DNA of 64,000 bases from Thermodesulfovibrionales bacterium (GTDB lineage Bacteria > Nitrospirota > Thermodesulfovibrionia > Thermodesulfovibrionales > SM23-35): assembly GCA_049302065.1 (NCBI GenBank), contig JBAQLU010000249.1, positions 18,539-82,538 on the forward strand, read 5' to 3'. The position numbers were made by a program, and so were the translations under genes. How positions within the stretch are numbered: position 1 is the first letter of the stretch; each line of letters opens with the position of its first letter. Below the pieces are notes generated by a model, which ran no database searches, had not been told where the DNA came from, and saw nothing but the letters and a program-made list of their open reading frames with translations. Below are positions 681-28,939 of this stretch, piece by piece.

Positions 681-3600
681 TTACCACGCCTGATACTGAA
701 ATTCTCTCAACACATCTGCTTGTGGTCCACCTGTCTCCAAATTGAATCTCATGTATCTTCCGGTCATTGGAGTGGCTGGTATTTCTGTCCACTGACCGAC
801 AGCAGGGTGCCAACCAGTCTTGATAGCAGGCCAATCAGTGCCACAAGATGTCAGACCATCACCGATTCTCAATCCCCATTGGCGGTCAATATTTTCCCAC
901 ACACGTATGAACCGAACTTTCTTGCTTGATCCCATATCGAATACTATAATGCCGCCCCCCCATAAATTACCTGTAGCCGTATTCCTATCAATGACATTTG
1001 CAGCTCCGTTCAAATCCGTACATGCAGCGTAAATTATCGGACTCTGCCAGTGAATTACCCAGATATACTTACTATCTGTAGCCGCAACAGTCGAGCCACC
1101 GTCAATCGAAAGCTGTAAGTGGTTCTTGAACGATTGATTAGAAAAATTCTTAAAACTCAACCCTGATATGGAGAGGGTGTCGCCTGCTGAAAAATTCTCG
1201 GTCACATTGATCAACAAAGTCTTATTGTCAGGATAACTTACTATGCTGCTTACCTTTGATGCTGCGCTGCCTCCGAAAGTGGCAGTTGTGTCCGTCGTAT
1301 CCCATGTCATGTTGAAAGAAGCTGGAATCTTGATCCGTATGTCGTTTACTGTTGTAATTGTTCCATTTGTAGGATAATATTTAATGTTTATCGGCTGAAT
1401 TGGCGTTGCAGACTGATCCTTTTCAAAGGTCTGATCAGCAAACGAAGAAATTGTCAGGTTTCTGTTCTCTGAGTTTTTATACCCCTGAAAATCAAATTCT
1501 CTGATAGTCATATTAGCTAAGCCTCCGCCAACCCCGAGAGCGTTAATCCTAATGTATCTGCCGGATACAGTGGGGTTGATTGCAGTCGCATGCCATGCAG
1601 AGTCACCAGGCGATGTCCATGAAAATTTGACTTGTGTCCCCATAGTACCAGTGCAGCCATCCAAATTATCACTCACATAGATATCCCAACCGTACTGAAC
1701 AGTGGTAAACATACGGATGCCAGTTACTGTATATGTGTCTCCAAGGTCAAAAACAACATAGCTACCAGCCACCCCTGTATTCCCAGTAGCTGTATTATTG
1801 TCAACTAAGTATCTTGAATTATTAAGGTTACAACAGTCAGGAGCGCTTACTGCGATTGTCTCATCGCCGCCTCCATTGAGAGGGGCAAAGTCTGCTGTAA
1901 CAATAGAGTCAATAGTTTCAAATATCTTATTCCCGACATGATACCCGGCGCCGGCAGAGCAGTCTATCACCTCTATCTGTCCCGGGCCGTCTGCAGTAGT
2001 GCCGGTAATTGTTACCGTTCCAGAATTGATTTTCGGCGCTATTGTATCAACAATTTTTACAGCTATAAATGTCGGATAATCCGGCTGATTTGCAAGTGTA
2101 AGCGTTGTGTTGGTCAGGTTTACAGTGTCAATTATGCTTTTTGGACTTTCTTCAGCAACATCTACCGGTGAGATCCAGTCCCAGATTTGTATGGACTTTG
2201 CATCAGTAGCTGCCAGGCTCATTCCTCCGTCCACAGAAAGACCAAGGTTGGCTGTATATGATTGCCCTAAAAAGTTCTTGAAACTCAAACCTTCCACAGT
2301 CAGAGTATCACCAGCGGCAAAATTTGATGTAACGTCAATCAGTAGTGTCTTATCGTCAGGATAGCTAACCGTTGAGCTTACCTTTCCTGAGGCTGTCCCG
2401 CCAATTGTAGCCACAGTATCACTCGTATCCCAGGACATATATAATGAGTATGGGATGACGATGCGGATATCGTTAGATGCGGTAATAGTCGGGCTGGTCG
2501 AGCTTTCAGTTATGGTAATCGGTGAAATGGAAGCAGCAGCCTGGCCAACCTCAAAGTCCTGGCCGGCCGCTGAAGACATTTTAACGTAATTATCTAAGGG
2601 TATCCCTAAGAACTCAACCTCCATAATTCCGTTATCAGGTGCATTCCCGGCATCAGCATATTGAATACGCATATATCTGCCGCTTGCCTGAGTTACTGCC
2701 TTTTCATACCACCCAGGGCCGACATATCCTACTTTCCATTTTCCGGTAACATCAATCCCGTCAGATAAACAATCGGAAAGTGTGTTGCCTACTTTGAAAT
2801 ACCAATTGTTATTTGTATTTGCATAAACTCTAATGTGGGTTACAAGATATTCCCTTCCAAGGTCAAGTATTCCATTGATTCCTCGAGCCAAGTTGCCGGT
2901 GGTCAGATCGTTGTCAATCAAGTAATCATAGCACCCCAACTCATTGCTGCAATATCCTCGGACAATAGCTATCGGTGTCATCCAGTGTTTGTCTTCAATA
3001 ATAATTGTTTTATCATCCAATGCGTCAGCCGTTGCGTCGAGGGCGCCATCTACGTACAGCTCTAAATTATCTGCAGCCGCTGACACATAAAAGTTCCTGA
3101 ATTTGAGACCTGATACGGTTATCTCATCCCCTTCGGAAAAGTCAGTGATTACAGTGAGAAGGAGCGTCTTGGTATCAGGATAACTTACCGTAGTACTCAC
3201 CTTAGCTGCAGCACTTCCACTAATTATGGCTGATATATCACTCGTATCCCATTCCATAGGGAATGCAGATGGTATTTTGATACGGATATCGTTGCCACTT
3301 TTAATATCAGCATCATCTGTTATTGCTTTGATCGTTATAGGGCTTATTGCAGTTGACCAGTCACCTATAGCAAAGGTCTGATCAGCAGTTGAAGAAATTA
3401 TCGCCTTTGTACCTATAAGTATTGTTTTGGCATTCTCAGTACAAAGGGTATGGCCGCCGTCTATATACAGCTCAAGGTTATCCTGTCCTGAGACGGCAGA
3501 AAAGTTAGTAAAGCTTAAACCTTCAACAGTAAGTGTATCTCCCGCTGCAAAATCACTGGTTACATCAATAAGCAAGGTCTTATTGTCTGGAAAACTTACT

Positions 3601-6128
3601 GTACTGTTTACCTTTGTTGCTGCGCTGCCTCCGAATGTGGCAGTCATATCCGTTGTATCCCAGGTCATGTTGAAGTTTCCCGGAATTCTTATGCGGATGT
3701 TGTTAGCAGCAGTGATGCTCGCGGTCTGAGGGTTGTCAGTAATTGTTATAGTGCTGATTGTCGTTGGAGGGTCGGCAACAGAAAAGTATTGATCTGCATC
3801 AGAAGAGAATGTCACAGTTCCCTTTGCCACACGGCTGTAAGTGCCGGAACTTGAATGACACGGACCGCAAACAGACTGACTCCAACGGCCGCCATCGCTG
3901 TCAGGAAGCTTTGTGGAGTTCGGGTAGCTGTATGGCGGCACATAGTAAAAACCGAGACTCCGCCCGCTAACCAGATTGCCGTCCCTTGCCATTCTGGGAA
4001 GTGTAGAGCCGTGGACATTGTGACAGGTCGGGCAACTGACAGTGCTGTCAAAGATTGAACCTGTCCAAGGAGGGGGACAGACGAGTGCATTATCATAGTC
4101 AGAATCCCATTTGCCGCAGTTGCCAAAGGGGTTCCATGACCCTCCATCAGTAGACTGGAGATGAGTCCAATGAGAGTTCACCTCCACCCGGTAATTGTTA
4201 CCTGGCTGAGCCCCATCTGAGAGCATCGATCCGTTCACTGTAATCGTAGTTGCGGTGTTGGAAATGATCAGGTAGACATTCCACGGCTTTTCTATATCGG
4301 GAATCAATGCTGAACCAGCAAGACCACCCCATGCTTTGGTAGTATCAGTCAGTATGGTTTCCGACAAGCCTGTTGAGGTACCACTGGTCTTTACAGATCG
4401 CAGATTCGTAGTCAGATTCGTTTGATCGAGGAACAGATCGAGATCATGGCACTGTCCGCACAAGGCAAAATCGGATTTTGGCATGCCAACATCGTTTCGA
4501 GGGATATCCATCGGAGGAGCTCCATTAACACTGTTAAGCCTATATCCTGCCTGATAATTATTTCTGGCCGCTACATAGGTTCTTGAATCATGATCAATGT
4601 GTGCATATGTAGTATTATGACAATCTGTGCATTTTGCATTAGCAGCAGGGCCGCCTGAAGCAGGATATGACCCGGTGGCAAGTCCGTGCCCGGTCTTATA
4701 AAAGCCGTATCCGGTACCATATTGAGTTGCGGCATCTTCGTCTCCGATTACATTTGGAGCAGCAACTCCTGAGCCGTCGGCTTTGCTGTTGGCGGGATTC
4801 TCGTCATGGCATCCGGCGCACCATTTTTCCTTGCCTGAACGAAGAAAGTTTCCACTATAAACTCCAAGGTTCCAGTTATTCTTGGCTCCTATTACTGGAT
4901 CACTTACTCCGTTATATGTCCCATTCGGGCTGTGGCATGTATTACAGACATCGGTTTCTGAGAGATCATATTTCCCATCTCCATTGCTATCAGTTCCTGT
5001 TTTGAAATATGGATAATTATTTGTATCATGACAGCCGCTACAGCCTATATTTGGCCCCTTCAGATCATCGCTGTCGTTCTCGGTATGTGTAGAATGACTC
5101 TTAAATGTACCTTCCCCCTGGTTGAAATTGCCGGTTTCATATTCATATCCGGCATCATGACCGTGACAAGCTTTACAGTTTGGCTTGAAGCCTTCCGTAT
5201 GAGGATGACAGGTTATGCAATTTGTGCCGGCTACTGCAACTCCGTTATGATTTACATGATTCGGGTCTGAACCTCCGCCATCATTCCTGAAGTGTTTTGT
5301 CTGTGTGTGGCACACCTCACATATGCCGTTGTATGTTGTATCCCCGTCTGCAAACGAGTTTGTTCCTGTCTGATCGAAAAACTTTACTGCCTTATATATA
5401 CTCTCAGGAGGTGGAGAAACAGAAGGATCTGCTTTAATGTCTATTGAATTTTTGATGTACTGACCATACATCACTGCAAAGGTGTTTGGAAGACTGAGAT
5501 TTGTACATGCATTACCTTTGACTGTTATTGCACCCGAATCCACTGCTGTGATTGGATAGTCATAGTTAAGATTATCTACATTGGGGAACAATACTGTACG
5601 TCGATAATCTGATGTCTTTTTTGTTAATTTCGTAGCATCCCACCCCGTCTTATACGTTATTGACGAATAGTTTAAAGTACTTGTACCATCGACGCCGTTG
5701 TACACACACGATGTGATTGTGCCCTGGGCAAGATATAGATTGCCTGCATCTGTACTTTTGTAATTCTTCTGTAGTTGGAAATGGGGGTTATGACAAGTAC
5801 GGCATTCTCTTGTCCATTCCCCATATTTATTGCTTATGCTCACACTTGAATGCGTCTTTACCCGAGGTGCAGTCCCGAAGTACGGACCAGATGAAGCAAC
5901 GTGACAGCTTAGACAGAGCATGTTGAAAGGAGTGTCATCTATGGTGTGTGGTGTAAAGATGGGAAACCAATAGAGTACCATAGGCCAGTCCGGTCCAATA
6001 TGACACTCTTGACAGGATACGTTATTGCTTTCATTGTGTGGAGTATCAATGGCAACACCGAACTGCGAACTGATTGCAACAATAAATCCTACGATGAATA
6101 CAATGATTACATGTGCCTTTATCCTCAT
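681..6128 (-). CDS. Giant multiheme c-type cytochrome (13 CXXCH) with a C-terminal tail of four ~140-aa repeats, one extra Ig-like module and three discoidin/F5-8-type-C-like jelly-roll modules
   Basis: Track ORF 681..6146 (1821 aa). I prefer the ATG at 6128 (MRIKAHVIIVFIVGF...), which has AGGAG about 9 nt upstream and lies 20 nt after the upstream stop. I counted 13 CXXCH in the first ~780 aa. The repeats share NDIRIKIPxxFxMxWDTxD...SYPDxKTLLIxVTxxFxAGDTLxVxGLSFxNF. The jelly-roll modules share YLxDNxxxTGN...GRYMRI/GRYIRI. Confidence 0.9.
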   Translation of the reverse strand: MRIKAHVIIVFIVGFIVAISSQFGVAIDTPHNESNNVSCQECHIGPDWPMVLYWFPIFTPHTIDDTPFNMLCLSCHVASSGPYFGTAPRVKTHSSVSISNKYGEWTRECRTCHNPHFQLQKNYKSTDAGNLYLAQGTITSCVYNGVDGTSTLNYSSITYKTGWDATKLTKKTSDYRRTVLFPNVDNLNYDYPITAVDSGAITVKGNACTNLSLPNTFAVMYGQYIKNSIDIKADPSVSPPPESIYKAVKFFDQTGTNSFADGDTTYNGICEVCHTQTKHFRNDGGGSDPNHVNHNGVAVAGTNCITCHPHTEGFKPNCKACHGHDAGYEYETGNFNQGEGTFKSHSTHTENDSDDLKGPNIGCSGCHDTNNYPYFKTGTDSNGDGKYDLSETDVCNTCHSPNGTYNGVSDPVIGAKNNWNLGVYSGNFLRSGKEKWCAGCHDENPANSKADGSGVAAPNVIGDEDAATQYGTGYGFYKTGHGLATGSYPASGGPAANAKCTDCHNTTYAHIDHDSRTYVAARNNYQAGYRLNSVNGAPPMDIPRNDVGMPKSDFALCGQCHDLDLFLDQTNLTTNLRSVKTSGTSTGLSETILTDTTKAWGGLAGSALIPDIEKPWNVYLIISNTATTITVNGSMLSDGAQPGNNYRVEVNSHWTHLQSTDGGSWNPFGNCGKWDSDYDNALVCPPPWTGSIFDSTVSCPTCHNVHGSTLPRMARDGNLVSGRSLGFYYVPPYSYPNSTKLPDSDGGRWSQSVCGPCHSSSGTYSRVAKGTVTFSSDADQYFSVADPPTTISTITITDNPQTASITAANNIRIRIPGNFNMTWDTTDMTATFGGSAATKVNSTVSFPDNKTLLIDVTSDFAAGDTLTVEGLSFTNFSAVSGQDNLELYIDGGHTLCTENAKTILIGTKAIISSTADQTFAIGDWSTAISPITIKAITDDADIKSGNDIRIKIPSAFPMEWDTSDISAIISGSAAAKVSTTVSYPDTKTLLLTVITDFSEGDEITVSGLKFRNFYVSAAADNLELYVDGALDATADALDDKTIIIEDKHWMTPIAIVRGYCSNELGCYDYLIDNDLTTGNLARGINGILDLGREYLVTHIRVYANTNNNWYFKVGNTLSDCLSDGIDVTGKWKVGYVGPGWYEKAVTQASGRYMRIQYADAGNAPDNGIMEVEFLGIPLDNYVKMSSAAGQDFEVGQAAASISPITITESSTSPTITASNDIRIVIPYSLYMSWDTSDTVATIGGTASGKVSSTVSYPDDKTLLIDVTSNFAAGDTLTVEGLSFKNFLGQSYTANLGLSVDGGMSLAATDAKSIQIWDWISPVDVAEESPKSIIDTVNLTNTTLTLANQPDYPTFIAVKIVDTIAPKINSGTVTITGTTADGPGQIEVIDCSAGAGYHVGNKIFETIDSIVTADFAPLNGGGDETIAVSAPDCCNLNNSRYLVDNNTATGNTGVAGSYVVFDLGDTYTVTGIRMFTTVQYGWDIYVSDNLDGCTGTMGTQVKFSWTSPGDSAWHATAINPTVSGRYIRINALGVGGGLANMTIREFDFQGYKNSENRNLTISSFADQTFEKDQSATPIQPINIKYYPTNGTITTVNDIRIKIPASFNMTWDTTDTTATFGGSAASKVSSIVSYPDNKTLLINVTENFSAGDTLSISGLSFKNFSNQSFKNHLQLSIDGGSTVAATDSKYIWVIHWQSPIIYAACTDLNGAANVIDRNTATGNLWGGGIIVFDMGSSKKVRFIRVWENIDRQWGLRIGDGLTSCGTDWPAIKTGWHPAVGQWTEIPATPMTGRYMRFNLETGGPQADVLREFQYQAW

Positions 6129-6148
6129 ATACCTGACTCCTGACATCG

Positions 6149-8893
6149 TTAATACCCTAATTCACCTGCCGATACAGCTATACCATACTGTACATTGTTA
6201 AAGGCAGTAAAGGTATTCATAAGGGTACCGTCTGCCTTATAAATTCTTACTATGGCCTGGTTCTTTGCATATGAGACAATTCCTGCTACGATCTCTGCTA
6301 TACCATCGCTGTTAAGGTCTGCTGATGCAATATTAAGACTATAACCTGCTGGAAGATCTTTTATCAGAAGACCAAACTCGGTCCCGTTTCCATAGAATGC
6401 CTTAATGATGTTTGTACCATTTCTTGTGTATGCACTGCTTACGATTATTTCGCTTATACCATCACCATTGAGGTCACCCGTTGTTACGTTAGCACTATAT
6501 AAACCGGGAAACAGAAAACGAATACCTGTATCGATGATTGACCATGAAGGCCCTGTTGTATTTATCTTCCATACCCTTATCTCCGGACTTGCAAAAGAGC
6601 CTGCACCAGATATAGTAATAAGCTCCGGTATACCGTCTCCATCTATATCGGCAGTTGCTACATTGACACCACCTTTTGACTTAGAGGCAATAAAGTCAAT
6701 GCCTGTATCTTTAATAACACCGCTGTCGTACTTGAATATCCTGACCTGTGCCGGGTTTTTAGGACCTGGACCAGCGCTTACCACTATCTCTGCTTTTCCA
6801 TCTCCGTCAAAATCAGCTGCAGCCACCTTTGCTCCGTACATTGTGTTCATGGCTATAAAATTACTCCCGGGTATTACTGTGCCGTCTGCCCTGTATACTA
6901 CAACTGCTGCAGGATTCTTCGATGATGCTCCAAGAGCAGCAACAATATCTGCTTTACCATCACCATCAATGTCTCCTACTGCAGTGTTTACAGCGTAATC
7001 AAAGTTGTATCTGCTCCCTGCTAAGGGTATAAGTGAGCCCAATAAAGCGCCACTCTTATTGAATATCCCTATCGTTTGGGGAGTCATTCGATTAGCGCCC
7101 CTGCTTACTACTATCTCTGCAGACATTGCAAGGCTGGTGTAATTTCCGGTAAAACTGATTGTTTTCTCCTGACTGCTGAGAACCTTTGTCTCAGCCTGAG
7201 GAGTTTTATACTTCCCTACAGGATTGTAAGTTATGGTGTATTCCCCATCAGGAACCTCGGTTGCTGTCCAGGTTTCACCACTCCCTTCATATCTACGAGG
7301 ACCTGTTATCGCAAAGGATGCCTCTGGAATACTACAGCTTACCTGAATAGTCCCACTGTATTTAACAGTTAGATTAACTTCTATATTTACTGGTGAACCG
7401 TCTGCCTTCGGCGCATCTATTGTGATATTGCCTTTATAGACTCCGGCCTCAAGGCCTGCCGGATTAATCCTCACCACTGCATATGTGGTTGTGTTGCCTG
7501 ACCCGGTTGTGGGTATAATGCTTAACCATGGAGAATCACTCGTAGCTGTCCATGTTGCCGTGCCATTTGATATTTCGACTGTTACTGTCTGTGAAGAAGG
7601 TTCAGGATCACCTATACTGTATGTGTAATTCAGTATTTGTGGTGTGACGGAAAGAAGAGGTGGCTCAGGCGGCGCTGTTATCTCAAGGGTTACTGTTACA
7701 ACTTCACTTATTCCCGAATTGTCAGTTATTGTTATCTCTCCGCTGTATGTCCCGGCGCTGAGCCCCGATATATTGACCCCGACAGGAAGAATCCCTGAGC
7801 CTCCAGCCCCGACTGTCCCGGATGGCCCATTGATCACTATCCAGCTTTCAGTACTTGTTACTTTATATGTCAATGTGCCTGTGCCTGAATTGCTTATGGT
7901 TATATCCTGAGGAGAAGGATTGGACTCGCCCTGCTGTGCTTCATATGATAGAGAAGAAGGTAATACATCCATGCTTATATATCCTTCAAGCCCAAATACA
8001 TATACGCTCGCTGTATTCATTGAGGCTGCAAATAGCCTCCTGTCTTGCCCTAATGCTATACCCATCGTTGTGAGCATCGGATTTGTTGGCGTCTGGATCG
8101 TCCCAAGAGAACTGCCGTCTTTATCAAAACATATCACTGCATTAAGAAATGAGTCGGTGATGTAAAGAATGCCTCCGCTATCTGATGTTATCCCCCGTGG
8201 CCGTATCATTTGCCCTGGGCCCGTGCCATAAAAACTAAATGTCCTCTGGAGAAGGCCATTCATGTCAAAAACACTGACCTGTACACCCCGTATTTTCTGC
8301 CCCCATTGGTTCGTGATCAATGGTTGGTCTAATACATATATTTCATTATTTATGAGCGTTACATCCTGAATGAGGTTCGGATAATCGTTTATCTTTAAAG
8401 GTATATTTTGATTTGTTAGTATAGGTTCGCCGTTTGACGTGTAAACCTTTATGGAATAATCAATCTGGTCAACAACATATACATTTCCCGTTGCCTTATC
8501 AACAGTTACGTTCCTTGGCAACTGGAATTCTCCGGCCCCTTTGCCCAGTGAGCCAATAATAGTATGAGATGAATTTAATATCTTTACAGAGAGGTCGTCA
8601 TTAGTGCTTATATAAATAGTGCCGTTATTATTTACAGCTACTGATGTGGGTTTCTGTATCGGGATACTGCCTGCTGACTGGCCTTTTCTGTCGTATATAA
8701 AAACTTTATTTTGATAACCATCTACGACATAAATCTTCCCATCTGAAGATACAGCCACATCCTCAGGGGCCTTCAGTCCATTCTTGATCGGATCTAATAC
8801 GTCATAGGTTATCTCAGAGTATCCGATACCAGGAATCAATAGGAAGATTACTATAGTAATAAGGTACAACAGCTTTATCCTGTTAACCATCAT
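6149..8893 (-). CDS. Secreted NHL-repeat beta-propeller / Ig-like (BACON-like) / PEGA-like / FG-GAP (VCBS) repeat protein
   Basis: 914-aa ORF with an N-terminal signal/anchor (LLYLITIVIFLLIPGIG). NHL-like blades are YVVDGYQNKVFIYDRKG, YVVDQIDYSIKVYTSNG and LYITDSFLNAVICFDKDG. C-terminal repeats are GDIDGDGKADIV, ADFDGDGKAEIVV, ADIDGDGIPELIT, GDLNGDGISEIIV and ADLNSDGIAEIVA. Confidence 0.85.
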   Translation of the reverse strand: MMVNRIKLLYLITIVIFLLIPGIGYSEITYDVLDPIKNGLKAPEDVAVSSDGKIYVVDGYQNKVFIYDRKGQSAGSIPIQKPTSVAVNNNGTIYISTNDDLSVKILNSSHTIIGSLGKGAGEFQLPRNVTVDKATGNVYVVDQIDYSIKVYTSNGEPILTNQNIPLKINDYPNLIQDVTLINNEIYVLDQPLITNQWGQKIRGVQVSVFDMNGLLQRTFSFYGTGPGQMIRPRGITSDSGGILYITDSFLNAVICFDKDGSSLGTIQTPTNPMLTTMGIALGQDRRLFAASMNTASVYVFGLEGYISMDVLPSSLSYEAQQGESNPSPQDITISNSGTGTLTYKVTSTESWIVINGPSGTVGAGGSGILPVGVNISGLSAGTYSGEITITDNSGISEVVTVTLEITAPPEPPLLSVTPQILNYTYSIGDPEPSSQTVTVEISNGTATWTATSDSPWLSIIPTTGSGNTTTYAVVRINPAGLEAGVYKGNITIDAPKADGSPVNIEVNLTVKYSGTIQVSCSIPEASFAITGPRRYEGSGETWTATEVPDGEYTITYNPVGKYKTPQAETKVLSSQEKTISFTGNYTSLAMSAEIVVSRGANRMTPQTIGIFNKSGALLGSLIPLAGSRYNFDYAVNTAVGDIDGDGKADIVAALGASSKNPAAVVVYRADGTVIPGSNFIAMNTMYGAKVAAADFDGDGKAEIVVSAGPGPKNPAQVRIFKYDSGVIKDTGIDFIASKSKGGVNVATADIDGDGIPELITISGAGSFASPEIRVWKINTTGPSWSIIDTGIRFLFPGLYSANVTTGDLNGDGISEIIVSSAYTRNGTNIIKAFYGNGTEFGLLIKDLPAGYSLNIASADLNSDGIAEIVAGIVSYAKNQAIVRIYKADGTLMNTFTAFNNVQYGIAVSAGELGY

Positions 8894-9106: not shown

Positions 9107-9385
9107 CTATTTTTTTAATGGACTAATACTTTCTATACCTTTTTGGCCCGGAAGGTTTCCTTTGAGTAACTCTTGATGGCAGTCGGTACACTGAGTGACA
9201 TTCCCACCTGCTCTTTCTATCATAAATTGATGTTTTTGAGGGTTCTTAAGTTTCATTTTTTCGATATGGGCATTCATTTTCTGTTTAAATTCTTCCTGGC
9301 TTTTCATTGGTCCGGCGTGCACATTAGCCACCGCACTCAAAACCATGATTAAACAAGCAATTATAATATATAAACCTTTTGTCAT
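9107..9385 (-). CDS. Small secreted monoheme c-type cytochrome
   Basis: 92-aa ORF with a signal peptide (IIIACLIMVLSAVANVHA) and a single CTDCH motif. Confidence 0.65.
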   Translation of the reverse strand: MTKGLYIIIACLIMVLSAVANVHAGPMKSQEEFKQKMNAHIEKMKLKNPQKHQFMIERAGGNVTQCTDCHQELLKGNLPGQKGIESISPLKK

Positions 9386-10829: not shown

Positions 10830-10909
10830 AAATCCTCTTTTTTATCAAAATTTGTTTATTTAAAATGATTTTGTCCTTATTCTCTCTTTCGTTTGCTCTA
10901 TGCTCTTTT
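10743..10909 (-). repeat. Heptamer-array inverted pair (AGAGCNN at 10743-10786; NNGCTCT at 10881-10909) flanking the start of cytochrome gene 9498..10829
   Basis: Read directly. The first arm is agctaag agcagag agctaaa agccaag agcttag agctcag. The opposite arm, tctctctttcgtttgctctatgctctttt, begins right after the stop of the upstream gene. Confidence 0.8.
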
Positions 10910-19204: not shown

Positions 19205-19846
19205 TTAAAATAATGAACCGATAGACTCCCTTACTACCTTCCCGGCAGCTTCACTCAGTGAAGGTCCTTCTGAACCAAAATGTCTGGTCCAGAAGTCAGG
19301 GCCGCCGGTTGTATGACGCACCGACCAGACAATATTTCCTGAATTTACCTCAATCATTCTTAAATTTATGGTAACCTCCGGATAACTGACCGAAATACCC
19401 CTGCCTGTCCCGAATGCCTCTACAGATCCTAATATTACTGCTTCTACATTTAAAGCTTTTCCGATCTCCTGGATTTCTGAAACTTTTACAGATCCGAGGG
19501 ACTTGATCTTCATTTCCCTAAAAAGTCTTGTTACCTCACCCGGCTCAATCACATCAACATCCCTTGAAAGAAGTTCTGTAATTGCTATTCTCCTTATCTT
19601 TTCACCAGCATAATCATCCTGAGTAAAGTTTTCAAAAGGTAAAATAGCTACTTTTTTGACGCTTTCAACATCAGTTTTTGGACGGACAAAATGTGTGGGT
19701 CCACATCCTTGTATAAAAAACAGCAAAAAACATATGGCATAGAGCATAGAGCATAGAGCTAATCCCCCCACCCCCCCTTTTGTAAAGGGGGGTAAGGGGG
19801 GATTAACGTATAGAGTTTTTTTCATTTTGTTCTTTGCTATTTTCAT
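19205..19846 (-). CDS. Small lipoprotein, paralog of 18568..19149
   Basis: 213-aa ORF with lipobox IQGC and motifs VAILPFENFTQDDYAG and GGPDFWTRHFGSEGPSLSEA. The N-terminal ~33 codons run through a heptamer array and a GC palindrome. The true start is uncertain (ATG at 19846, 19825 or 19747). Confidence 0.6.
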   Translation of the reverse strand: MKIAKNKMKKTLYVNPPLPPFTKGGVGGLALCSMLYAICFLLFFIQGCGPTHFVRPKTDVESVKKVAILPFENFTQDDYAGEKIRRIAITELLSRDVDVIEPGEVTRLFREMKIKSLGSVKVSEIQEIGKALNVEAVILGSVEAFGTGRGISVSYPEVTINLRMIEVNSGNIVWSVRHTTGGPDFWTRHFGSEGPSLSEAAGKVVRESIGSLF

Positions 19847-19887
19847 TTTACTCTCTACTCTTAGCCCTTTGCTCTTCGCTCTTTGCT
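19731..19887 (-). repeat. Heptamer-array inverted pair (19731-19761 and ~19850-19887) with a nested GC-rich palindrome (19761-19803)
   Basis: The first arm is catatggcatagagcatagagcatagagcta. The palindrome is aatcccccccaccccccctttt g taaaggggggtaaggggggatt. The second arm is actctctactcttagccctttgctcttcgctctttgct, beginning just after the OMP stop codon. Confidence 0.8.
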
Positions 19888-19891
19888 ATTG

Positions 19892-22216: not shown

Positions 22217-22282
22217 GCTCTTTTTCCTTTGCTCTTAGCTCTTAGCTCATTGCTCATTGCTCTTTGCTCATTGCTCTTCGCT
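22167..22282 (-). repeat. Heptamer-array hairpin with the OMP start codon in the loop (arm 22167-22210, loop tttcat = ATGAAA, arm 22217-22282)
   Basis: The sequence reads agcataaagcatagagcgaagagcatagagcgaagagcatagag tttcat gctctttttcctttgctcttagctcttagctcattgctcattgctctttgctcattgctcttcgct. Confidence 0.85.
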
Positions 22283-23936
22283 AATAAGGAAACATCGCTA
22301 TCCCATACGGTTTTTTCCCTACAGGGATAACCTTTTCTTCCCTGCTCGTAGTTTTATCTATTACCGAGACATTATCCGAACCCCTATTGACTACGTAAAT
22401 CTTTCTACCTTCGGGATCTAAGATTAAGGATCTTGGAGAATTCCCTACCGTGATTGTTCCCATTACCGGTGCTATGGTTGTTTTAACCGTGCTTAATGCT
22501 TCGGAAAATGGCCTAATGATCATTATCTCGCCGGAGATCTCCTTTAATAAATAGATTCTGTCAAGATCAGGGTCAGAGATAATCCCTACAACAGAAGTCC
22601 CGACATTTGTAATAGAACTGACAGCTCCGGGTCTATTAATAATCTGAATAATATCAATAACCGAGAGATTGTCATAATTATAATTACCTACATAAACCTT
22701 TGCCCTTTGATAATCGGCTGCAATCGCTATTGGTCTCCAGTCAACACTTAATTGCATAATTCCATCAACCCTGCTGTTATGAATATCCATTCTTATAATC
22801 GAGACATCCCTGGAATTCTTATTCGCAACATATACATTGAAAAACTTCTCACGATAATTTCTTAATAAAAGGAGATCATCAAAGCTGAGAAATCTTGAAC
22901 CTGACAGACTCTCAATCGGTGGGTCTGCGGCGATTGCGATAGGTCCACTCCCTACATTTATTTTTTCAATCTCCTGATAGGTTGAGGTATCAATAACAGA
23001 GACGTTGTCAGAACCATAATTTGTTACAAATATAAGTTCTTTTTTAGGAGATATCTTTGTAACAGCTACCCCTTCTGGTTCCCTGCCAAACCTTATCGGT
23101 ATTTCCATCTCAACCTTATGGACAGTAGGGTCTATAACGGAAATACTGTTTGAGCCTGAATTAGCCACATAAACCCGTGGATATTCTTTAACCTGGCTCA
23201 CTGCAACGCCCCTCGGTTTCTTTCCCACCATTATAGTTGCAACGATTTCACCTGATTGTCTGTTAATGACAGAGACATTATTTGAACCTTCATTCGTCAC
23301 ATAGATAAGCAAAGTACTTAATTCCGGGACCTGACCTTTGACAGCGAATACAGGATTGAAAAGGTATCCGTCTGCAACGGAAGCATCGGCGTTCCAGTTT
23401 AAAAATAATGACGTGTTCTGGTTTCTTGTTATCGTAATATCTATACTTATCTCTATCCCTTCGGGTGGAAGCGCCAGATTTGCTGTTTTGTCTTTTTTCC
23501 GGATCAAAGCTTGTTTCACTATGAGCTGAAGTTTCTTGTATCTGCCCTCGGGCAGATATCTCTCACCCAGACGCACCTGACGACCCGTAAGAGATATTGA
23601 ATTTATATTCACCGGGGTATTCATAATCTCTCTGTATGTACCGTCTTCTGACAGAATATTGACTGCTGCAAGTTCAAATGTTAAATCCGTTGAGGTTATA
23701 TCAGGCCCTTTCAGAAGAACAGTAATCTGCCCATTGGTTGTACCCGGAGACTCAATGTACTCCTGAACAGATGCACACCCCACCCCGAAAACAAGCAAAG
23801 AGCAAAGAGCTAATAGCAAAGAGTTCTTAGCAAAGAGCTTAGAGCGAAGAGCAAAAAGTTTAGAGCCGCCGACTAAAAGCCTAAAGCGAATAACTAAATT
23901 TTGAGATTTTTTATAAAGCCGCTCATCATTCGACAT
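22281..23936 (-). CDS. Lipoprotein with an N-terminal DUF4382-like domain and a YVTN-family beta-propeller
   Basis: 551-aa ORF with lipobox VFGVGC. Six YVTN-type blades are visible: YVTNEGSNNVSVI, YVANSGSNSISVID, FVTNYGSDNVSVID, YVANKNSRDVSII, YVGNYNYDNLSVID and YVVNRGSDNVSVID. Confidence 0.85.
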   Translation of the reverse strand: MSNDERLYKKSQNLVIRFRLLVGGSKLFALRSKLFAKNSLLLALCSLLVFGVGCASVQEYIESPGTTNGQITVLLKGPDITSTDLTFELAAVNILSEDGTYREIMNTPVNINSISLTGRQVRLGERYLPEGRYKKLQLIVKQALIRKKDKTANLALPPEGIEISIDITITRNQNTSLFLNWNADASVADGYLFNPVFAVKGQVPELSTLLIYVTNEGSNNVSVINRQSGEIVATIMVGKKPRGVAVSQVKEYPRVYVANSGSNSISVIDPTVHKVEMEIPIRFGREPEGVAVTKISPKKELIFVTNYGSDNVSVIDTSTYQEIEKINVGSGPIAIAADPPIESLSGSRFLSFDDLLLLRNYREKFFNVYVANKNSRDVSIIRMDIHNSRVDGIMQLSVDWRPIAIAADYQRAKVYVGNYNYDNLSVIDIIQIINRPGAVSSITNVGTSVVGIISDPDLDRIYLLKEISGEIMIIRPFSEALSTVKTTIAPVMGTITVGNSPRSLILDPEGRKIYVVNRGSDNVSVIDKTTSREEKVIPVGKKPYGIAMFPY

Positions 23937-24289
23937 AATTCCTCGAGTTTTAACAAGATTGTTTGTTTAACGTGATTTTGTATATATTCTCTTTTTTCGA
24001 AAAGAATCATCATGTTTGCATTTTCGAAACAAGATCTTTTAGCAATATTTAAAAATTGAACAAATTCCTTTTTGGAATTACTTCCCGAACCTTCTGCTAT
24101 ATTATTTGATATTGATAGAGCAGCTCCTCTTAACTGCTCAGCAAATTTATATAACTTTTTCCTTTCAAGATCATCAGAAATATCAAACAAATTTCCCGCA
24201 ATCTCTATTGATTTTTTCCATATCTCTAAATTCTCAAATCTAAACATCTGTATTTCCTACTCTTTGCTCTATGCTCTTTGCTCTTCGCT
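23793..24289 (-). repeat. Split heptamer-array pair (long arm 23793-23892, short opposite arm 24259-24289) bracketing the four-helix-bundle gene
   Basis: The long arm is aagcaaagagcaaagagctaatagcaaagagttcttagcaaagagcttagagcgaagagcaaaaag.... The opposite arm is actctttgctctatgctctttgctcttcgct. The 354-nt ORF 23894..24247 lies between them. Confidence 0.75.
23894..24247 (-). CDS. Four-helix-bundle protein (23S rRNA intervening-sequence protein family)
   Basis: 117-aa ORF: FENLEIWKKSIEIAGNLFDIS...FAEQLRGAALSISNNIAEGSGSNSKKEFVQFLNIAKRSCFE. The FxxLxVWQKA...QLxRAAxSIxxNIAEG...FL..A.GS..E pattern is diagnostic of this family. Confidence 0.85.
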   Translation of the reverse strand: MFRFENLEIWKKSIEIAGNLFDISDDLERKKLYKFAEQLRGAALSISNNIAEGSGSNSKKEFVQFLNIAKRSCFENANMMILFEKREYIQNHVKQTILLKLEELCRMMSGFIKNLKI

Positions 24290-25271
24290 ATTCATTTGCT
24301 TTAAACACCTGTATCCTGTCATTAAAGGTATCGGCAACAAGTACCCTGCCCTGAGAGTCAACAGCTATATCCCTCGGATACTGAAACCATCCTTCACCCC
24401 AGCCCAGGCCGCCAAATTCAAATAAATATTTCCCATCCTTATCATAGGCAGATACAGTATGACGCATATAATCTACCACATACATCCTGCCATTGCGATT
24501 ATCCACACCAACTGCCCGAGCCCGGCTTAGCTTACCCTTGCTTCCTCCCTTTTGCCCGAATTTAAAAAGAAATTTTCTATTTTCATCATATACATAGATG
24601 TGTCCTTCCTCCTCGCTTACAAGATATATCCTGCCTTCTTTATCCACAGTCACGTAGTCTAATTTCACCTTCTTCCCTTCTTCCTCGGGTGATAAGATCT
24701 CCAATAGCTCCCCCTGATTATTCAGAATCAGAATGCCTGAAAAGTATGACCCGGCTACGTAAATATTTCCATTTTTATCCGTAGACAGGCGATAGGGCAT
24801 AAATGAATCGGCTCCCTCAAAACCCTTTAAATAGATATCACGCTCCCATTTAAAACATGCATTAAAAACCGAAATCTTATGTCTGGGATTCTCCTTTGTT
24901 GCGCTATGAGCAACATAAAGGTTACCTTCAGCATCTACAGTCAAGCCCTGTGGTGTTTCAATACCGTACTTTTTGCTAAGGGTAAAGACGGGGAAAAAAT
25001 CTGATGTATATATTATTATCTTAGTTTGACTAATAACATAAATCTCATTACTGATCGGGTCTGAGAACACAAAAGAAGGGAAGTGTATCTTACCCCCTTC
25101 CTCATCCTCAGTTATAACATCAAGATAGGTTACCGAGGTAACGGCCTGCTGTGCAACGAGTTTGTGAGGAATACATAGCACATAGCAAAGAGCAAGGAGC
25201 AAACAGCTAAAAGCTAACAAAGTAGCACGTTTTTTTCTCTCAAGATCATTTAAATTCTCAAACCTAAACAT
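24288..25271 (-). CDS. Secreted NHL-repeat six-bladed beta-propeller protein
   Basis: 327-aa ORF. NHL blades include LYVAHSATKENP, IYVAGSYFSGILILNNQG, IYLVSEEEGHIYVYDENRKFLFKFG, MYVVDYMRHTVSAYDKDGKYLFEFG and VLVADTFNDRIQVF. The first 14 codons are a remnant of a four-helix-bundle gene. Confidence 0.85.
   Translation of the reverse strand: MFRFENLNDLERKKRATLLAFSCLLLALCYVLCIPHKLVAQQAVTSVTYLDVITEDEEGGKIHFPSFVFSDPISNEIYVISQTKIIIYTSDFFPVFTLSKKYGIETPQGLTVDAEGNLYVAHSATKENPRHKISVFNACFKWERDIYLKGFEGADSFMPYRLSTDKNGNIYVAGSYFSGILILNNQGELLEILSPEEEGKKVKLDYVTVDKEGRIYLVSEEEGHIYVYDENRKFLFKFGQKGGSKGKLSRARAVGVDNRNGRMYVVDYMRHTVSAYDKDGKYLFEFGGLGWGEGWFQYPRDIAVDSQGRVLVADTFNDRIQVFKANE
25173..25226 (-). repeat. Single heptamer array encoding the h-region of the NHL protein signal peptide
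   Basis: The array reads acatagcacatagcaaagagcaaggagcaaacagctaaaagctaacaaagtagc. In sense orientation it translates to ATLLAFSCLLLALCYVLC. Confidence 0.75.
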
Positions 25272-25408
25272 CTTAATCTCCTATATGCCATTTACTATCC
25301 TTAGCTTGGACAGGTATGATCAATTATGTCAATTATTTGCTCTTAAAAAAATAAGATAAGGAGAGCAGAAATTTCTGCTCTCCTTATCTTCAGTGTCTCA
25401 AGTTCTAA

Positions 25409-26422
25409 CTACCGCTGAGCAACATGGCAGGTTTCACAGCCATTGTTGTTTGTTGAATTCCCTGCATTCATAGTACTGTAGGTAAACCTCAGGATGTCTT
25501 TCTGGGTAGTACCGTGGGCCCTGTGGCAGCTCATGCACGAGGCCTTCCCATTAGCTGTTGTGTATGCCGTACCGGTAGTCATGTCCGTAGTCAACATGCC
25601 GGCAATCTGTGCAGTTGTAAATGCGAACGGGGTCTCATTAAGCTCTGCGTTTGTTGGTGTAAATAATGTAGCCACAATATTGGTTATCAAAGCTTCTTCG
25701 TCAGTCGGATGGCGTTTGAAGGGACTTGTTCCAGTGTCAGTTGTATTGGCCGACCCGTGGAAGTTCCCGTGGCAGTTGCCGCAGAAGGCGCTTATACTAT
25801 CAGTGCCGTCGCCGTCGTATACGTTGTGGTTGCCAGATGTAGCGCCGCCCGCTTCATAAATAGAAGACTCCTTACCACCTACTAAAGTTCCGGCTGCACC
25901 GGTATTGCCTGCTTGTACATACAGCCATCTGAAGGCAGTGGAAGTACCGTGATGCATACCATGTACACCCAGGTCCGGGGAGGTACCATGTTTGCCGTGG
26001 CATCCGTATGTGCCCTCACATGTCACCTTGTTTGAAGCCCAGGTTAATCCGGCAGTGTAGCCGGGCGGAGTCTTAACCCAGACATCACCAGCGACAATAT
26101 CGTGTCTCGTGTCTTGATCAGCAGCACCAACATCGTAATCCCCACCTGCTGTAGAAAGGGCACCGGCACCAACACCACTAGCATTGGCAGTTCCATCGAT
26201 CTTGGGAGCAAGCGCTGCGCCGCCACTGACATGACAGGCCAAACAAGAGTACAATGTGAGATAGGGTTGCTGGCCAGTGGTACCCAAGTCGCTCACCCCA
26301 TTTTGGCTATCGTGCATAGTGTGGCAGGTGACGCATGTTCCGGTAACCGCAGCATTAGCAAAGCCATACGTTAGGACAAGAGAAAGAAGAGCAATAACAC
26401 CTACGATTAATATCTTTTTCAT
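25409..26422 (-). CDS. OmcS-like multiheme cytochrome, paralog 2 (5 CXXCH + 1 CX5CH)
   Basis: 337-aa ORF with a normal signal peptide (ANA/AV). Motifs are CVTCHTMHDSQNG, CLACH, CEGTYGCHG, FCGNCHGNFH..FKRHP, CMSCHRAHG and GCETCH. Confidence 0.8.
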   Translation of the reverse strand: MKKILIVGVIALLSLVLTYGFANAAVTGTCVTCHTMHDSQNGVSDLGTTGQQPYLTLYSCLACHVSGGAALAPKIDGTANASGVGAGALSTAGGDYDVGAADQDTRHDIVAGDVWVKTPPGYTAGLTWASNKVTCEGTYGCHGKHGTSPDLGVHGMHHGTSTAFRWLYVQAGNTGAAGTLVGGKESSIYEAGGATSGNHNVYDGDGTDSISAFCGNCHGNFHGSANTTDTGTSPFKRHPTDEEALITNIVATLFTPTNAELNETPFAFTTAQIAGMLTTDMTTGTAYTTANGKASCMSCHRAHGTTQKDILRFTYSTMNAGNSTNNNGCETCHVAQR

Positions 26423-26759: not shown

Positions 26760-27896
26760 CTATTGGTTTTTTTTGGTATGACAGGCAAGGCAGCCCTTTT
26801 TTGTCACATTCCGAGTATCCATTTTTGAATAATCCCATCTCAGGATATCAGAATATTGGCTTGCATGTGACCTGTGACAGGAAAGGCACATAAGTATACT
26901 GTTTGAATCAACAACTTCTTCTCCACCTGTGGGCTGTCCAAAAGCAACAGGGGCTTCGAGACTGTACGTAACATAACCCTGATACTCAGAACTTGCAAAA
27001 CCACCATGTACAGTTGCAAAGGCAATATCAGCAGGATGCCTGCGCCATATGGAGTTATAAGCTTGCCCAACCTCCCTGCTGCCGCCAAGATTGGGATTGG
27101 GATGGAACTTGGCATGACATTCGCCGCAGAGATAACTTATGGTATCCATGGTATCATGAGCGATATCACCCTTGTAGCCGTTATGATTATTGATAGTGGC
27201 CAGATATTCCCAGTCTCTATGTTCCGTGCCTTTTATTCCGTAAAGAAAGCGATAACTTTTGCCAACTGTTGAGCCATCGATAATACGGTCATCTGAATGG
27301 TGCGCCCCATATAGAGATTGATAAAGGTTTTCAATTGTCCTGTTCCCATGACATCCCCATGTTCCTGCACAGGTAAGCTGCTGCTGGCCAGGCCAATATG
27401 CAGGCCCGGTTCCTCCCGGTATCAGTACATTCTTCATAAATCCAGGAGGGACATCCATTGGAGGGTTTTCCTGGCGGGAGATGCCTTTGATATTGTGCCC
27501 CTTTGAATAATCAGGATTATATTCATCTGCAACGTAATAAAAATTCCCGCCTGCCAGATCATCGTTTTGCAGATGATGCAGTATCTGAGGAATCCTGGTC
27601 TTTCCAGTGGTGATGATGCTTTTTGTGCCGTTCGGATTCCGGCCATGACAGCCGATACAGCCGCCTTGCGTGAGGGCAGGAAATGGTCCCTGACGATCTC
27701 CATAGGTAACCTCCTTGCCTTCATAACTGTAATGCATGCTATGGCAATCTTTGCATTTCCCTTTTACCCTTGCATCAACAACAGAAGCAAAGAGCATATA
27801 GCATAGAGCAAAGAGTAAAATATAGAAAACCCTTGCTCCTTGTTCTTTGCTCTTTGCTCTTAGCTCTTTGCTCTTGGCTATTTTCCTGTATGGCAT
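26760..27896 (-). CDS. OmcS-like multiheme cytochrome, paralog 3 (5 CXXCH + 1 CX5CH)
   Basis: Track ORF 26760..27905. I prefer the ATG at 27896 (MPYRKIAKSKELRAKSKEQ...). Motifs are CKDCHSMH, CIGCH, AGGNFYYV..KGHNI, CAGTWGCHG, YRFL, CGECHAKFH..WRRHP, CLSCHRSHAS, ILRWDY and GCLACHT. Confidence 0.8.
   Translation of the reverse strand: MPYRKIAKSKELRAKSKEQGARVFYILLFALCYMLFASVVDARVKGKCKDCHSMHYSYEGKEVTYGDRQGPFPALTQGGCIGCHGRNPNGTKSIITTGKTRIPQILHHLQNDDLAGGNFYYVADEYNPDYSKGHNIKGISRQENPPMDVPPGFMKNVLIPGGTGPAYWPGQQQLTCAGTWGCHGNRTIENLYQSLYGAHHSDDRIIDGSTVGKSYRFLYGIKGTEHRDWEYLATINNHNGYKGDIAHDTMDTISYLCGECHAKFHPNPNLGGSREVGQAYNSIWRRHPADIAFATVHGGFASSEYQGYVTYSLEAPVAFGQPTGGEEVVDSNSILMCLSCHRSHASQYSDILRWDYSKMDTRNVTKKGCLACHTKKNQ
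27783..27879 (-). repeat. Heptamer-array hairpin element (arm 27783-27826, loop aaaccct, arm 27834-27879) encoding the N-terminus of OmcS-like paralog 3
   Basis: The sequence reads agaagcaaagagcatatagcatagagcaaagagtaaaatataga aaaccct tgctccttgttctttgctctttgctcttagctctttgctcttggct. It translates to AKSKELRAKSKEQGARVFYILLFALCYMLFA. Confidence 0.85.
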
Positions 27897-28939
27897 ATCA
27901 AACAACCACCTTTTCCATCTTCCCCCGTATAAATATTGTCATAATCCCATCTTAAGACAGAATCATACGGACTTGAATGTGCTACATGACATGAGAGACA
28001 GATAACAATATCTTCGCCGGGTCTGACCTCTTCACCCGGCGATGCAGGAACCTTTACTCGCCCAACCGGGGCATCGATGCTATAAATCCTGATATCATCC
28101 CTATCAGATGGAGGAGGAATATCAGGATTATAATTCGCATACTCGCCTCTCTTTGGGAGAATGATGCCTGCCGGATGCCTAAACCATGGGCTCGGTTCTT
28201 TATCCATTTTCATATCCTTCTTGTGAAAGTCTGCATGACAGCTTGCACAGAGAAAATCCATTGTTGGAGAATATTCATTATGCTTTGTTGAAGAACTATC
28301 TTGATTCCAGTCTCTATCCTCAAGCCCCAGAACACCTTTTATTTTATCCGTATTTTTTAAAAACCTGTAACTCTTTGCTGTTGTGCTTCCATCCAGTGGT
28401 TTATCAACCGCATGATGAGTGCCGTAAACTGCTTCAAAGGGGTCTTCAATATTTCTATTTCCATGGCAGCCGTTAGAACCTGCGCATGTCAGAGGATTCT
28501 CAGGATTATAGCCGATACTTGAAATATCTGATGCCCTTACATATCCTGGAGGGGATCCTTTGAATTTTGCATCCATAGAAGATATACCATTTACATTATG
28601 TCCCTTTCTATCACCAAAATCCTTAGCTACATAATAAAAATTGCCACCCGCTAAGGGACGGACCGGCTTAACATTGCTGAAAACCACCGGAACCCTATTC
28701 CCACCAAGCATCTTTATAGTATCACTTGTATTATTTGAGTGACAATTTACGCAGAAAGTGTCTTTTAAGACATACTCAAATGGTTTGGCACGATAGGTTT
28801 TCTCCATCATGCCCGGGTAAACGGTATGGCATGCATCACAGTCTCCACCCACTTCAGCGATACTAATACCTGAGTATAAGATTATGACTAATAGACATAG
28901 AAACAGAATATTGATTATAAGTCTTGTCTTTTTTTGCAT
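27878..28939 (-). CDS. OmcS-like multiheme cytochrome, paralog 4 (5 CXXCH + 1 CX5CH)
   Basis: 353-aa ORF with a signal peptide. Motifs are CDACHT, CVNCH, AGGNFYYV..KGHNV, CAGSNGCHG, YRFL, CASCHADFH..WFRHP, CLSCHVAHSSPY, VLRWDY and GCLICHT. Confidence 0.8.
   Translation of the reverse strand: MQKKTRLIINILFLCLLVIILYSGISIAEVGGDCDACHTVYPGMMEKTYRAKPFEYVLKDTFCVNCHSNNTSDTIKMLGGNRVPVVFSNVKPVRPLAGGNFYYVAKDFGDRKGHNVNGISSMDAKFKGSPPGYVRASDISSIGYNPENPLTCAGSNGCHGNRNIEDPFEAVYGTHHAVDKPLDGSTTAKSYRFLKNTDKIKGVLGLEDRDWNQDSSSTKHNEYSPTMDFLCASCHADFHKKDMKMDKEPSPWFRHPAGIILPKRGEYANYNPDIPPPSDRDDIRIYSIDAPVGRVKVPASPGEEVRPGEDIVICLSCHVAHSSPYDSVLRWDYDNIYTGEDGKGGCLICHTGK

Follow-up and report, generated by a model that had tools for sequence, protein, structure and literature searches.

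Shen et al. (2025, Cell Chem Biol 32:239) reportedly described an omcS-companion (osc) operon in Geobacter sulfurreducens, GSU2504-GSU2493. Geobacter genomes with the OmcS-like GSU2501 all carry an eight-gene block, GSU2500-2493, in which GSU2495 is a 26-haem protein of ~70 kDa (Starwalt-Lee et al., PMC12977616). Under the osc names, oscC is the OmcS-like gene, oscI is GSU2495 and oscJ is GSU2494 (PMC13194489), and for what the Osc proteins do we rely on papers citing Shen 2025, which, as far as they relay that work, connect OscD with morphology, OscE, OscF and OscG with secretion, and OscH with folding (PMC13194489, PMC12977616). Two further systems are comparable, namely the OetI/OetB/OetA conduit, which is found next to OmcS-like genes in sulfate-reducing partners of anaerobic methanotrophic archaea (ANME) and has been linked to the Geobacter omcS region (Murali et al., PMC10553843), and the Desulfovibrio ferrophilus clusters DFE_0448-0451 and DFE_0461-0465 with their NHL propellers (Deng et al., PMC5815863), for whose products expression and recovery from the outer membrane were described in the same paper. 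Proposed uses of these homologous systems range from Fe(III) oxide reduction (Geobacter) through electron uptake (D. ferrophilus) to interspecies transfer (ANME partners). Here, we describe a multihaem cytochrome locus at positions 681-28939 of a 64,000-nucleotide stretch (hereafter the window) from the metagenome-assembled genome (MAG) of a Thermodesulfovibrionales bacterium (contig JBAQLU010000249.1). The locus is a real system from an uncultured lineage and belongs to the already described kind; it is probably the Thermodesulfovibrionales ortholog of osc, OetABI and DFE_0461-0465 and would encode an outer-membrane machine for extracellular electron exchange.

Gene Content and Collinearity with the osc Operon

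The six-frame listing of open reading frames (ORFs) gives 18 minus-strand ORFs at 681-28939, one fewer than the nineteen genes counted in the initial annotation, whose list nevertheless lacked the 23S_rRNA_IVP-family (IVP) gene at 23894-24247. Motif counting found exactly 84 CXXCH motifs, all on the minus strand, where about 84 had been estimated, and the haem proteins of 13, 26, 16, about seven and one haem(s) were recovered with counts of 13, 26, 16, 7 and 1. If the conserved CX5CH sites of three OmcS-like paralogs and the CX4CH site of the fourth are added, the total is likely 88 haems. The other 35 kb of the window contain no further multihaem ORF and none with more than one CXXCH. A signal peptide or lipobox stands at the N-terminus of each of the 17 system proteins (IVP gene excluded), which, together with osc homology, supports the proposed envelope or extracellular multihaem system. 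Window genes bear the locus tags WA126_16240 and WA126_16275 in the source MAG. The features are, in the direction of transcription:

27878-28939, minus strand: OmcS-like paralog S1, 353 aa, signal peptide, 5 CXXCH and 1 CX5CH (OmcS 6ef8, E 4.9e-5)
26760-27905, minus strand: OmcS-like paralog S2, up to 381 aa, 5 CXXCH and CX5CH, CHSMH motif
25409-26422, minus strand: OmcS-like paralog S3, 337 aa, 5 CXXCH and CX5CH, CHTMH as in OmcS, GGAGG ribosome-binding site
24288-25271, minus strand: NHL-repeat beta-propeller, signal peptide, by position the counterpart of D. ferrophilus DFE_0463 (Pfam/NCBIfam; BLASTP E 4e-19, 1e-17)
23894-24247, minus strand: 23S_rRNA_IVP-family four-helix-bundle gene in a heptamer hairpin loop (E 2.6e-29)
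22281-23936, minus strand: OscD-like protein, DUF4382 and YVTN/lactonase-type 7-blade propeller, probable lipoprotein (TIGR02276, E 2.7e-51)
19892-22216, minus strand: OscE-like (by position and description OetI-like) outer-membrane beta-barrel, 774 aa, ~28 strands
19205-19846, minus strand: OscF-like lipoprotein 1, LpoB/CsgG/GNA1162-like fold, lipobox IQGC (E 3e-27)
18568-19149, minus strand: OscF-like lipoprotein 2, lipobox LTGC (E 4e-31)
17370-18398, minus strand: OscG-like protein, two tandem OscF-like domains, probable lipoprotein (E 5e-39)
15703-17379, minus strand: OscH-like periplasmic chaperone, SurA_N-like region and two parvulin peptidyl-prolyl isomerase (PPIase) domains, lipobox WGGC
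13680-15650, minus strand: OscI-like (by position OetB-like) 26-haem cytochrome, 26 CXXCH, lipobox-like FFTC (E 2e-144)
12368-13714, minus strand: OscJ-like (by position OetA-like) 16-haem cytochrome, 16 CXXCH, type I signal peptide, probably periplasmic
10910-12088, minus strand: OmcS-like paralog S4 (DFE_0464 type), 6 CXXCH and CX4CH giving 7 haem sites, CHTMH
9498-10829, minus strand: 7-haem cytochrome, 7 CXXCH, homolog of the D. ferrophilus gene following DFE_0464, by position DFE_0465 (35%, E 7e-58)
9107-9385, minus strand: monohaem cytochrome, 92 aa, 1 CXXCH, signal peptide
6149-8893, minus strand: secreted NHL propeller, BACON-like and FG-GAP repeat protein, 914 aa
681-6146, minus strand: secreted 13-haem protein, 1821 aa, 13 CXXCH

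For the comparison with osc, OmcS residues 7-352 were rebuilt from PDB alignments and searched, which led to contigs of G. sulfurreducens subsp. ethanolicus and Geotalea daltonii. The Geotalea contig encodes, in order, an NHL protein (320 aa), an OmcS-like protein, a 474-aa propeller, a 739-aa protein without Pfam match, lipoproteins of 188 and 372 aa, a 580-aa PPIase, a 657-aa cytochrome and a further cytochrome. The statement in the initial annotation that omcS lies next to an NHL-repeat gene was borne out on both contigs, where the 320-aa protein immediately precedes the OmcS-like gene and a 327-aa homolog precedes omcS, respectively. BLASTP matched the first NHL propeller of the window to these two proteins (Geotalea E 4e-19; Geobacter E 1e-17) and the YVTN propeller to OscD (Geotalea E 1e-35, Geobacter E 1e-28), while the barrel aligned over its full length with the two OscE proteins (E 1.5e-23, with 23 % identity, and E 7e-20). 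The two small lipoproteins matched OscF (E 3e-27 and 4e-31), the third lipoprotein OscG (E 5e-39) and the PPIase the OscH of Geotalea (E 6e-26). The 26-haem protein (656 aa) matched Geotalea OscI (657 aa) with 38 % identity and E 2e-144; the 16-haem protein matched OscJ with E 7e-22 in its best stretch, within the 142 N-terminal OscJ residues compared. Hence, the collinear shared parts comprise the NHL gene, the OmcS-family gene(s), OscD, OscE with its insertion, OscF, OscG, OscH, OscI and OscJ, at a low osc-window identity of 23-38 %. The initial annotation had regarded this combination as no described module; the collinear BLASTP matches identify it as the osc operon. By position and description, its barrel and two large cytochromes match the OetABI conduit, and its distal part is the DFE_0461-0465 cluster.

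The window locus also differs from osc in several respects. It has four OmcS-like (S) genes, three upstream and one downstream of the oscJ-like gene, CX5CH or CX4CH takes the place of CXXCH as their third haem motif, and a seventh site is present in S4. OscF is duplicated, the NHL gene is placed between the S genes and oscD, and the spermine-synthase-like gene is absent. Distally, the window carries extra genes for the 7-haem, monohaem, NHL/BACON/FG-GAP and 1821-aa 13-haem proteins, and its phylum is Nitrospirota.

D. ferrophilus provides the closest sequence match for the distal half of the locus. A tblastn search of AP017378.1 (495521-516657) gave 34 % identity for the 26-haem protein, 33 % for the 16-haem protein, 25 % for the NHL protein, 49 % for the S4-type protein and 35 % for the 7-haem protein (E 4e-11 to 4e-115), and the S4 counterpart keeps six CXXCH and the CX4CH. 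In contrast to the window, the D. ferrophilus NHL gene follows the 16-haem gene, the three-gene S1-S3 array was not found in the 21 kb compared, and an OscD-like match was not found in the stretch compared. Directly upstream of DFE_0461-0465 (coordinates 1-5882 of locus L069), we further observed a barrel homolog (E 9e-17), and the same stretch holds genes for two OscF-like (OscF/G-like) lipoproteins, for a protein of 491 aa and for a PPIase. The barrel homolog thus lies just upstream of DFE_0461, though D. ferrophilus has been said to lack apparent porin-cytochrome genes (PMC9769857).

The likeness to OetABI is one of position and description, that is, an outer-membrane barrel (OetI), a periplasmic cytochrome (OetA), a cytochrome lipoprotein (OetB) and adjacent OmcS-like genes, and its link to the window runs through Geobacter. 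The published survey covers Desulfobacterota only (PMC10553843), and homologs of OmcX and Apc2a were not identified at the window locus. The osc, Oet and DFE literatures evidently apply three naming schemes to one system.

Conservation across Genomes

A genome scan with the barrel, which used very specific peptide patterns and did not include Geobacter among its matches, retrieved 60 loci (one genome per species), 59 from Nitrospirota/Thermodesulfovibrionia and one from an Ignavibacteriales MAG with the same gene set by sequence comparison. With their ORFs classified by the window proteins, the order is near-invariant: it opens with one to four S genes and continues with NHL, D, E, F, F, G, H, I, J and S, frequently followed by the 7-haem gene, and is conserved over a range of 31-65 % barrel identity in the 59 Nitrospirota genomes. 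Two loci without the distal genes contain masked N runs. This gene-neighbourhood survey of 60 species-level genomes confirms the barrel, lipoprotein, propeller and PPIase genes as conserved partners of the cytochromes, and duplication of OscF recurs across the Nitrospirota loci. A recently characterised nanowire-assembly/conduit cluster is thereby extended to uncultured Thermodesulfovibrionia, in which it is highly conserved; earlier FeGenie-based surveys had flagged OmcS/DFE genes in this group (PMC8478452).

The OmcS-Like Paralogs

The initial annotation had named four OmcS-like paralogs and, beforehand, their failure to align with OmcS as speaking against the proposal; significant alignment was found instead. 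In a single-sequence PDB search, OmcS (6ef8) was the sole significant match of S1 (E 4.9e-5) and S4 (E 2.5e-5, full length), and a profile of 33 family members matched 6ef8 with E 2.5e-24, the runner-up having E 0.13. S1-S4 match one another with E 1e-22 to 3e-66, align with OmcS over their full length and gave BLASTP matches to OmcS, OmcT and OscC with E 1e-9 to 1e-15. In the joint alignment, the haem motifs follow the OmcS order and five non-motif OmcS histidines are conserved. The OmcS arrangement of six plain CXXCH in order occurs in none of the four, the order of the remaining motifs being kept; at the position of OmcS motif 3, S1-S3 have CX5CH (C-AGSNG-CH, C-AGTWG-CH and C-EGTYG-CH), and S4 has CX4CH plus one extra CXXCH, which results in seven sites. 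By sequence, S1-S4 are homologs and not orthologs of OmcS.

The cysteine pair of the variant motif 3 is conserved in essentially all orthologs from about 60 genomes, and both CX5CH and CX4CH are likely haem sites. Among 116 matches to S4, 65 combine six CXXCH with CX4CH, 23 with CX5CH and 12 with CX3CH, so that in the wider DFE_0464-type family the spacer at the variant site is 3, 4 or 5 residues long; six plain CXXCH are present in 111 of 120 close OmcS relatives. A histidine three residues past the first motif (CHTMH) occurs in S2, S3 and S4 in the joint alignment. We take it to be the equivalent of OmcS His16, the ligand of the neighbouring subunit's haem in the 6ef8 structure. It is at least 90 % conserved in the S4 family and, in related loci, was found in 34 of 38 S2-type, 11 of 11 S3-type, 31 of 31 S4-type and 15 of 30 S1-type proteins.

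S3 may be the major, bulk secreted subunit and is the best candidate for this role because its gene has its own promoter-like site, a strong ribosome-binding site and a terminator. The true start of S2 probably lies downstream of a heptamer hairpin (see below).

Barrel, Lipoproteins, Chaperone and Propellers

The 774-aa outer-membrane barrel and its insertion, first estimated at ~165 aa, are well supported by an AlphaFold model built with 34 homologs (mean predicted local distance difference test score, pLDDT, 87.3), in which 11 long strands precede an all-beta insertion at ~258-433 (~175 aa) and 17 more follow it; the modelled barrel would be big enough to hold a protein. The insertion aligns with residues ~245-430 of Geobacter OscE and sits at the same place in both the Geobacter and the Geotalea protein, which makes the jelly-roll decoration a family trait. 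The barrel matches no Pfam or NCBIfam family, that of MtrB included. Within the family, 769 cluster representatives were found at E <= 1e-3 among 1.84 billion proteins, and homologs bearing source names are annotated as 'hypothetical protein' without exception.

The description of the barrel as MtrB-like stands as far as size and the top Foldseek PDB match are concerned (MtrB, 6r2q_B, E 5.5e-10, 8 % identity, template modelling (TM) score 0.32), yet sequence homology is absent. Moreover, the match is generic to large barrels, because other barrel classes (TonB-dependent receptors and pilus ushers) follow it, all with low TM-scores. Shewanella MtrCAB (6r2q) resembles the window system in its large barrel of similar size and in the MtrA/DmsE-type companion cytochromes. 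It differs in several ways: the MtrB barrel has 26 strands, whereas that of the window has 28 and an internal insertion domain; the window has no MtrC/OmcA-type decahaem protein; and Mtr is devoid of the lipoprotein, PPIase and propeller partners.

The three related small lipoproteins postulated initially gave weak LpoB/CsgG/GNA1162-like matches (Pfam/NCBIfam) in addition to their OscF/OscG homology. Likewise, the SurA/PrsA-type PPIase was recovered with two Rotamase domains and a SurA_N-like region (Pfam), and the three propeller proteins as two NHL propellers (24288-25271 and the N-terminus of 6149-8893) and one YVTN propeller (Pfam/NCBIfam).

Large Cytochromes and Distal Genes

The 26-haem protein consists of MtrA/DmsE-type paired-CXXCH repeats and scores 283 bits against TIGR03508 (cut-off 192), for which the 16-haem protein, with 147 bits, remains below the cut-off. 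In family scans, no protein of the locus reached the OmcA/MtrC family cut-off. Anammox-type and nitrite/sulfite-reductase cytochromes were considered and rejected, as catalytic-type families all stayed below their cut-offs and the whole set maps onto osc.

No PDB relative of the 7-haem protein was found at E <= 1 except one chance lectin match. The 92-aa monohaem cytochrome is weakly conserved, occurring in one related locus only within the available flank. In the 1821-aa protein, the 13 CXXCH lie inside residues 45-760, followed by ~1000 aa of non-haem repeats; domain searches gave segments resembling cytochrome c7/c3, an Ig-like domain (BppU_IgG) above threshold and, weakly and below threshold, an F5/8-type-C (discoidin)-like one, and a PDB search returned nothing at E <= 0.01. 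A metagenome scan with the 914-aa protein yielded one informative contig (L067), on which homologs of the 914-aa and 1821-aa proteins are again adjacent (78 % and 60 % identity). System membership of these two proteins is suggested by adjacency only, and together with the monohaem gene they look like lineage-specific accessories.

Proposed Function and Alternatives

By analogy, the locus most likely encodes an outer-membrane export and anchoring machine combined with a haem conduit for extracellular OmcS-family cytochromes, which may form filaments. Judged by their Sec or lipoprotein signals, all 17 system proteins act in the envelope. S1-S4, with six or seven haems each, would be matured in the periplasm with the aid of the OscH-like double-parvulin chaperone, as proposed for Geobacter OscH in the papers that relay Shen 2025, and may then cross or be anchored at the outer membrane via the 28-strand OscE-like barrel, helped by the OscF-, OscF'- and OscG-like lipoproteins. 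The OscD-like YVTN propeller and the NHL propeller may act on the surface form of the cytochromes. Following the idea put forward for OetA and OetB, the periplasmic 16-haem and the lipoprotein-like, MtrA-type 26-haem proteins could form a haem path from the periplasm to the surface; secretion channel and electron conduit are mutually compatible readings of the barrel. Outside the cell, the S-type subunits, with S3 as the best candidate for the bulk, would probably polymerise as OmcS does, the presumed His16 ligand being kept in S2, S3 and S4. Electrons could flow outward, to reduce minerals, or inward, from minerals or from partner cells.

Several observations weigh against this proposal. The S paralogs share just 22-27 % identity with OmcS, S1 has a tyrosine at the His16 position, and the AlphaFold model of S4 (mean pLDDT 52) is too low for a fold comparison. 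Furthermore, the Nitrospirota members are known from their genes alone, and wire formation is established solely for G. sulfurreducens OmcS, the functions of OmcT, OscC and OmcJ being unknown (PMC12977616). Deletion of DFE_0461-0462 or DFE_0464-0465 left Fe(III) oxide reduction by D. ferrophilus unimpaired (PMC9769857).

Less probable, albeit worth serious consideration, is a porin-cytochrome conduit without a filament, in which the barrel surrounds the 26-haem protein in the way that MtrB surrounds MtrA, the OmcS-like proteins sit at its outer end as surface cytochromes, singly or in small oligomers, and the PPIase and lipoproteins do no more than aid the assembly of barrel or cytochromes. 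Such a conduit would accord with MtrB as the nearest PDB neighbour of the barrel, with the scoring of the 26- and 16-haem proteins as DmsE/MtrA family, with the published reading of OetABI (PMC10553843) and with the restriction of proven polymerisation to OmcS (PMC12977616); nor is a D. ferrophilus cytochrome filament reported in PMC9769857 or PMC5815863. It is, however, at odds with the conservation of the His16-type inter-subunit ligand in most family members, with the layout of S3, which resembles that of a high-copy structural subunit gene, and with the participation of the Geobacter barrel, lipoprotein and PPIase homologs in OmcS folding and secretion, as relayed from Shen 2025 (PMC13194489).

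The filament-exporting machine may conceivably have been elaborated further. In a doubtful scenario, the osc machinery has expanded into a multi-polymer surface network of three CX5CH hexahaem polymers and one heptahaem polymer, tipped or anchored by the 1821-aa, 13-haem protein, whose discoidin-like and Ig-like domains would bind minerals or partner cells. If true, Nitrospirota would gain their first cytochrome-filament system, and it would also be the first such system to have a non-CXXCH haem site in the conductive chain.

That the locus is a previously undescribed module, a new mix of OmcS-like genes, decorated barrel, propellers and dedicated PPIase, is very improbable: a barrel outside all Pfam and NCBIfam families, whose source-named homologs are all hypothetical proteins, might suggest as much, but the genes of the locus are collinear, one to one, with the Geobacter osc genes and the DFE cluster, and both the eight-gene block and its OmcS link are already in the literature (PMC12977616, PMC13194489, PMC10553843, PMC5815863). 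An accidental grouping of periplasmic redox and envelope genes that are unrelated and share no function, for which several gaps of 140-340 nt, the terminator-like hairpin, several promoter-like sites and the unrelated IVP gene inside the block might be cited, has a negligible probability and is excluded by the recurrence of the gene order in 60 species-level genomes, as the order NHL-D-E-F-F-G-H-I-J-S is kept despite the wide range of barrel identity and extends to Ignavibacteriales, Geobacter, Geotalea and Desulfovibrio.

Overall, the known picture of how such systems work is unchanged, and the locus supports the view that Thermodesulfovibrionia, relatives of sulfate reducers, exchange electrons with minerals or partner cells.

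Transcription Signals and Heptamer Hairpins

The uniform gaps of 4-20 nt assumed at first were not found; some neighbours seemingly overlap, and the widest gap measures 337 nt. Directly behind S3 lies a terminator-like hairpin with a perfect 17-bp stem and a T-run (25390-25353), and the best promoter-like site of the region (11/12, TTGACA-16-TATTAT, 26664-26637) lies in the 337-nt gap upstream of S3, with another 11/12 site ahead of the 26-haem gene (15691-15663). Because of the terminator-like hairpin, the promoter-like sites and the spacing, a single transcript for the whole locus is argued against, which weakens the initial notion of one tightly coupled operon.

Long imperfect hairpins of 7-nt repeats, (AAAGAGC)n ... 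(GCTCTTW)n on the coding strand, occur at the 5' ends of many genes (10718-10911, 13548-13690, 17250-17385, 19715-19898, 22144-22293, 23780-23900 with 24243-24307, 25156-25227 and 27779-27897), with RNA folds of -40 to -65 kcal/mol (z -3.5 to -8). Arrays of at least three units are nearly confined to 10.7-27.9 kb of the window, one more being located at 44107. The start codon of the barrel gene adjoins the apical loop of its hairpin. The 3' arm encodes the hydrophobic core of a signal peptide (L-Y-A-L-R-S-M-L-F-A-L-C), while the 5' arm reads K-S-K-E-Q-R-A in extended ORFs, lengthening them and yielding false overlaps; accordingly, several of the seeming gene overlaps are due to ORFs that continue through a hairpin lying upstream of the probable start. 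The repeats are limited to closer relatives, mostly loci L001-L020 of the survey, with at least one array also in L026, L029, L030, L032, L036, L046-L048 and L062, and are therefore lineage-specific and outside the osc system.

Nested in the hairpin upstream of the first OscF-like gene is a G/C-rich palindrome at 19761-19804 (AAUCCCCCCUUACCCCCC ... GGGGGGGUGGGGGGAUU), which folds jointly with the heptamer hairpin (-64.9 kcal/mol, z -7.95). Since its translation as PPLPPFTKGGVGG results when the longest ORF is taken, the start of this gene is probably further downstream.

The IVP gene sits between the hairpin arms 23797-23852 and 24259-24293 and is an insertion, not a component of the system. 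Intact IVP genes occur at different junctions in related loci, and the start of the adjacent NHL gene copies the first IVP residues (MFRFENL) in a 33-nt repeat of 88 % identity (25251-25283). A 47-aa ORF remnant with the motif FEDLECW between the second and third lipoprotein genes (18395-18538) suggests, as read by eye, a further IVP-like copy. Together, these features suggest a mobile insert that targets heptamer hairpins.

Genomic Surroundings

The ScpA gene adjoins the locus not only in the window but also in several related genomes; this conserved neighbourhood and the similar GC content suggest a stable place in the chromosome and not a recent island. Between ScpA and the first OmcS-like gene, the non-coding DNA holds a 30-nt inverted repeat (29168-29197/29427-29456), whose arms are 93 % complementary and separated by 229 nt. 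Neither the Rfam scan nor the tRNA scan gave a match in the window. The flank at 31449-45490 encodes redox and carbon-fixation proteins, namely a formate-dehydrogenase/NuoG-like molybdopterin protein, a protein of the prismane/carbon monoxide dehydrogenase (CODH) family, two NuoF-like flavoproteins of near-identical architecture with CBS domains (33709-36048 and 36840-39170), and the beta and delta subunits of CODH/acetyl-CoA synthase, i. e., Wood-Ljungdahl genes.

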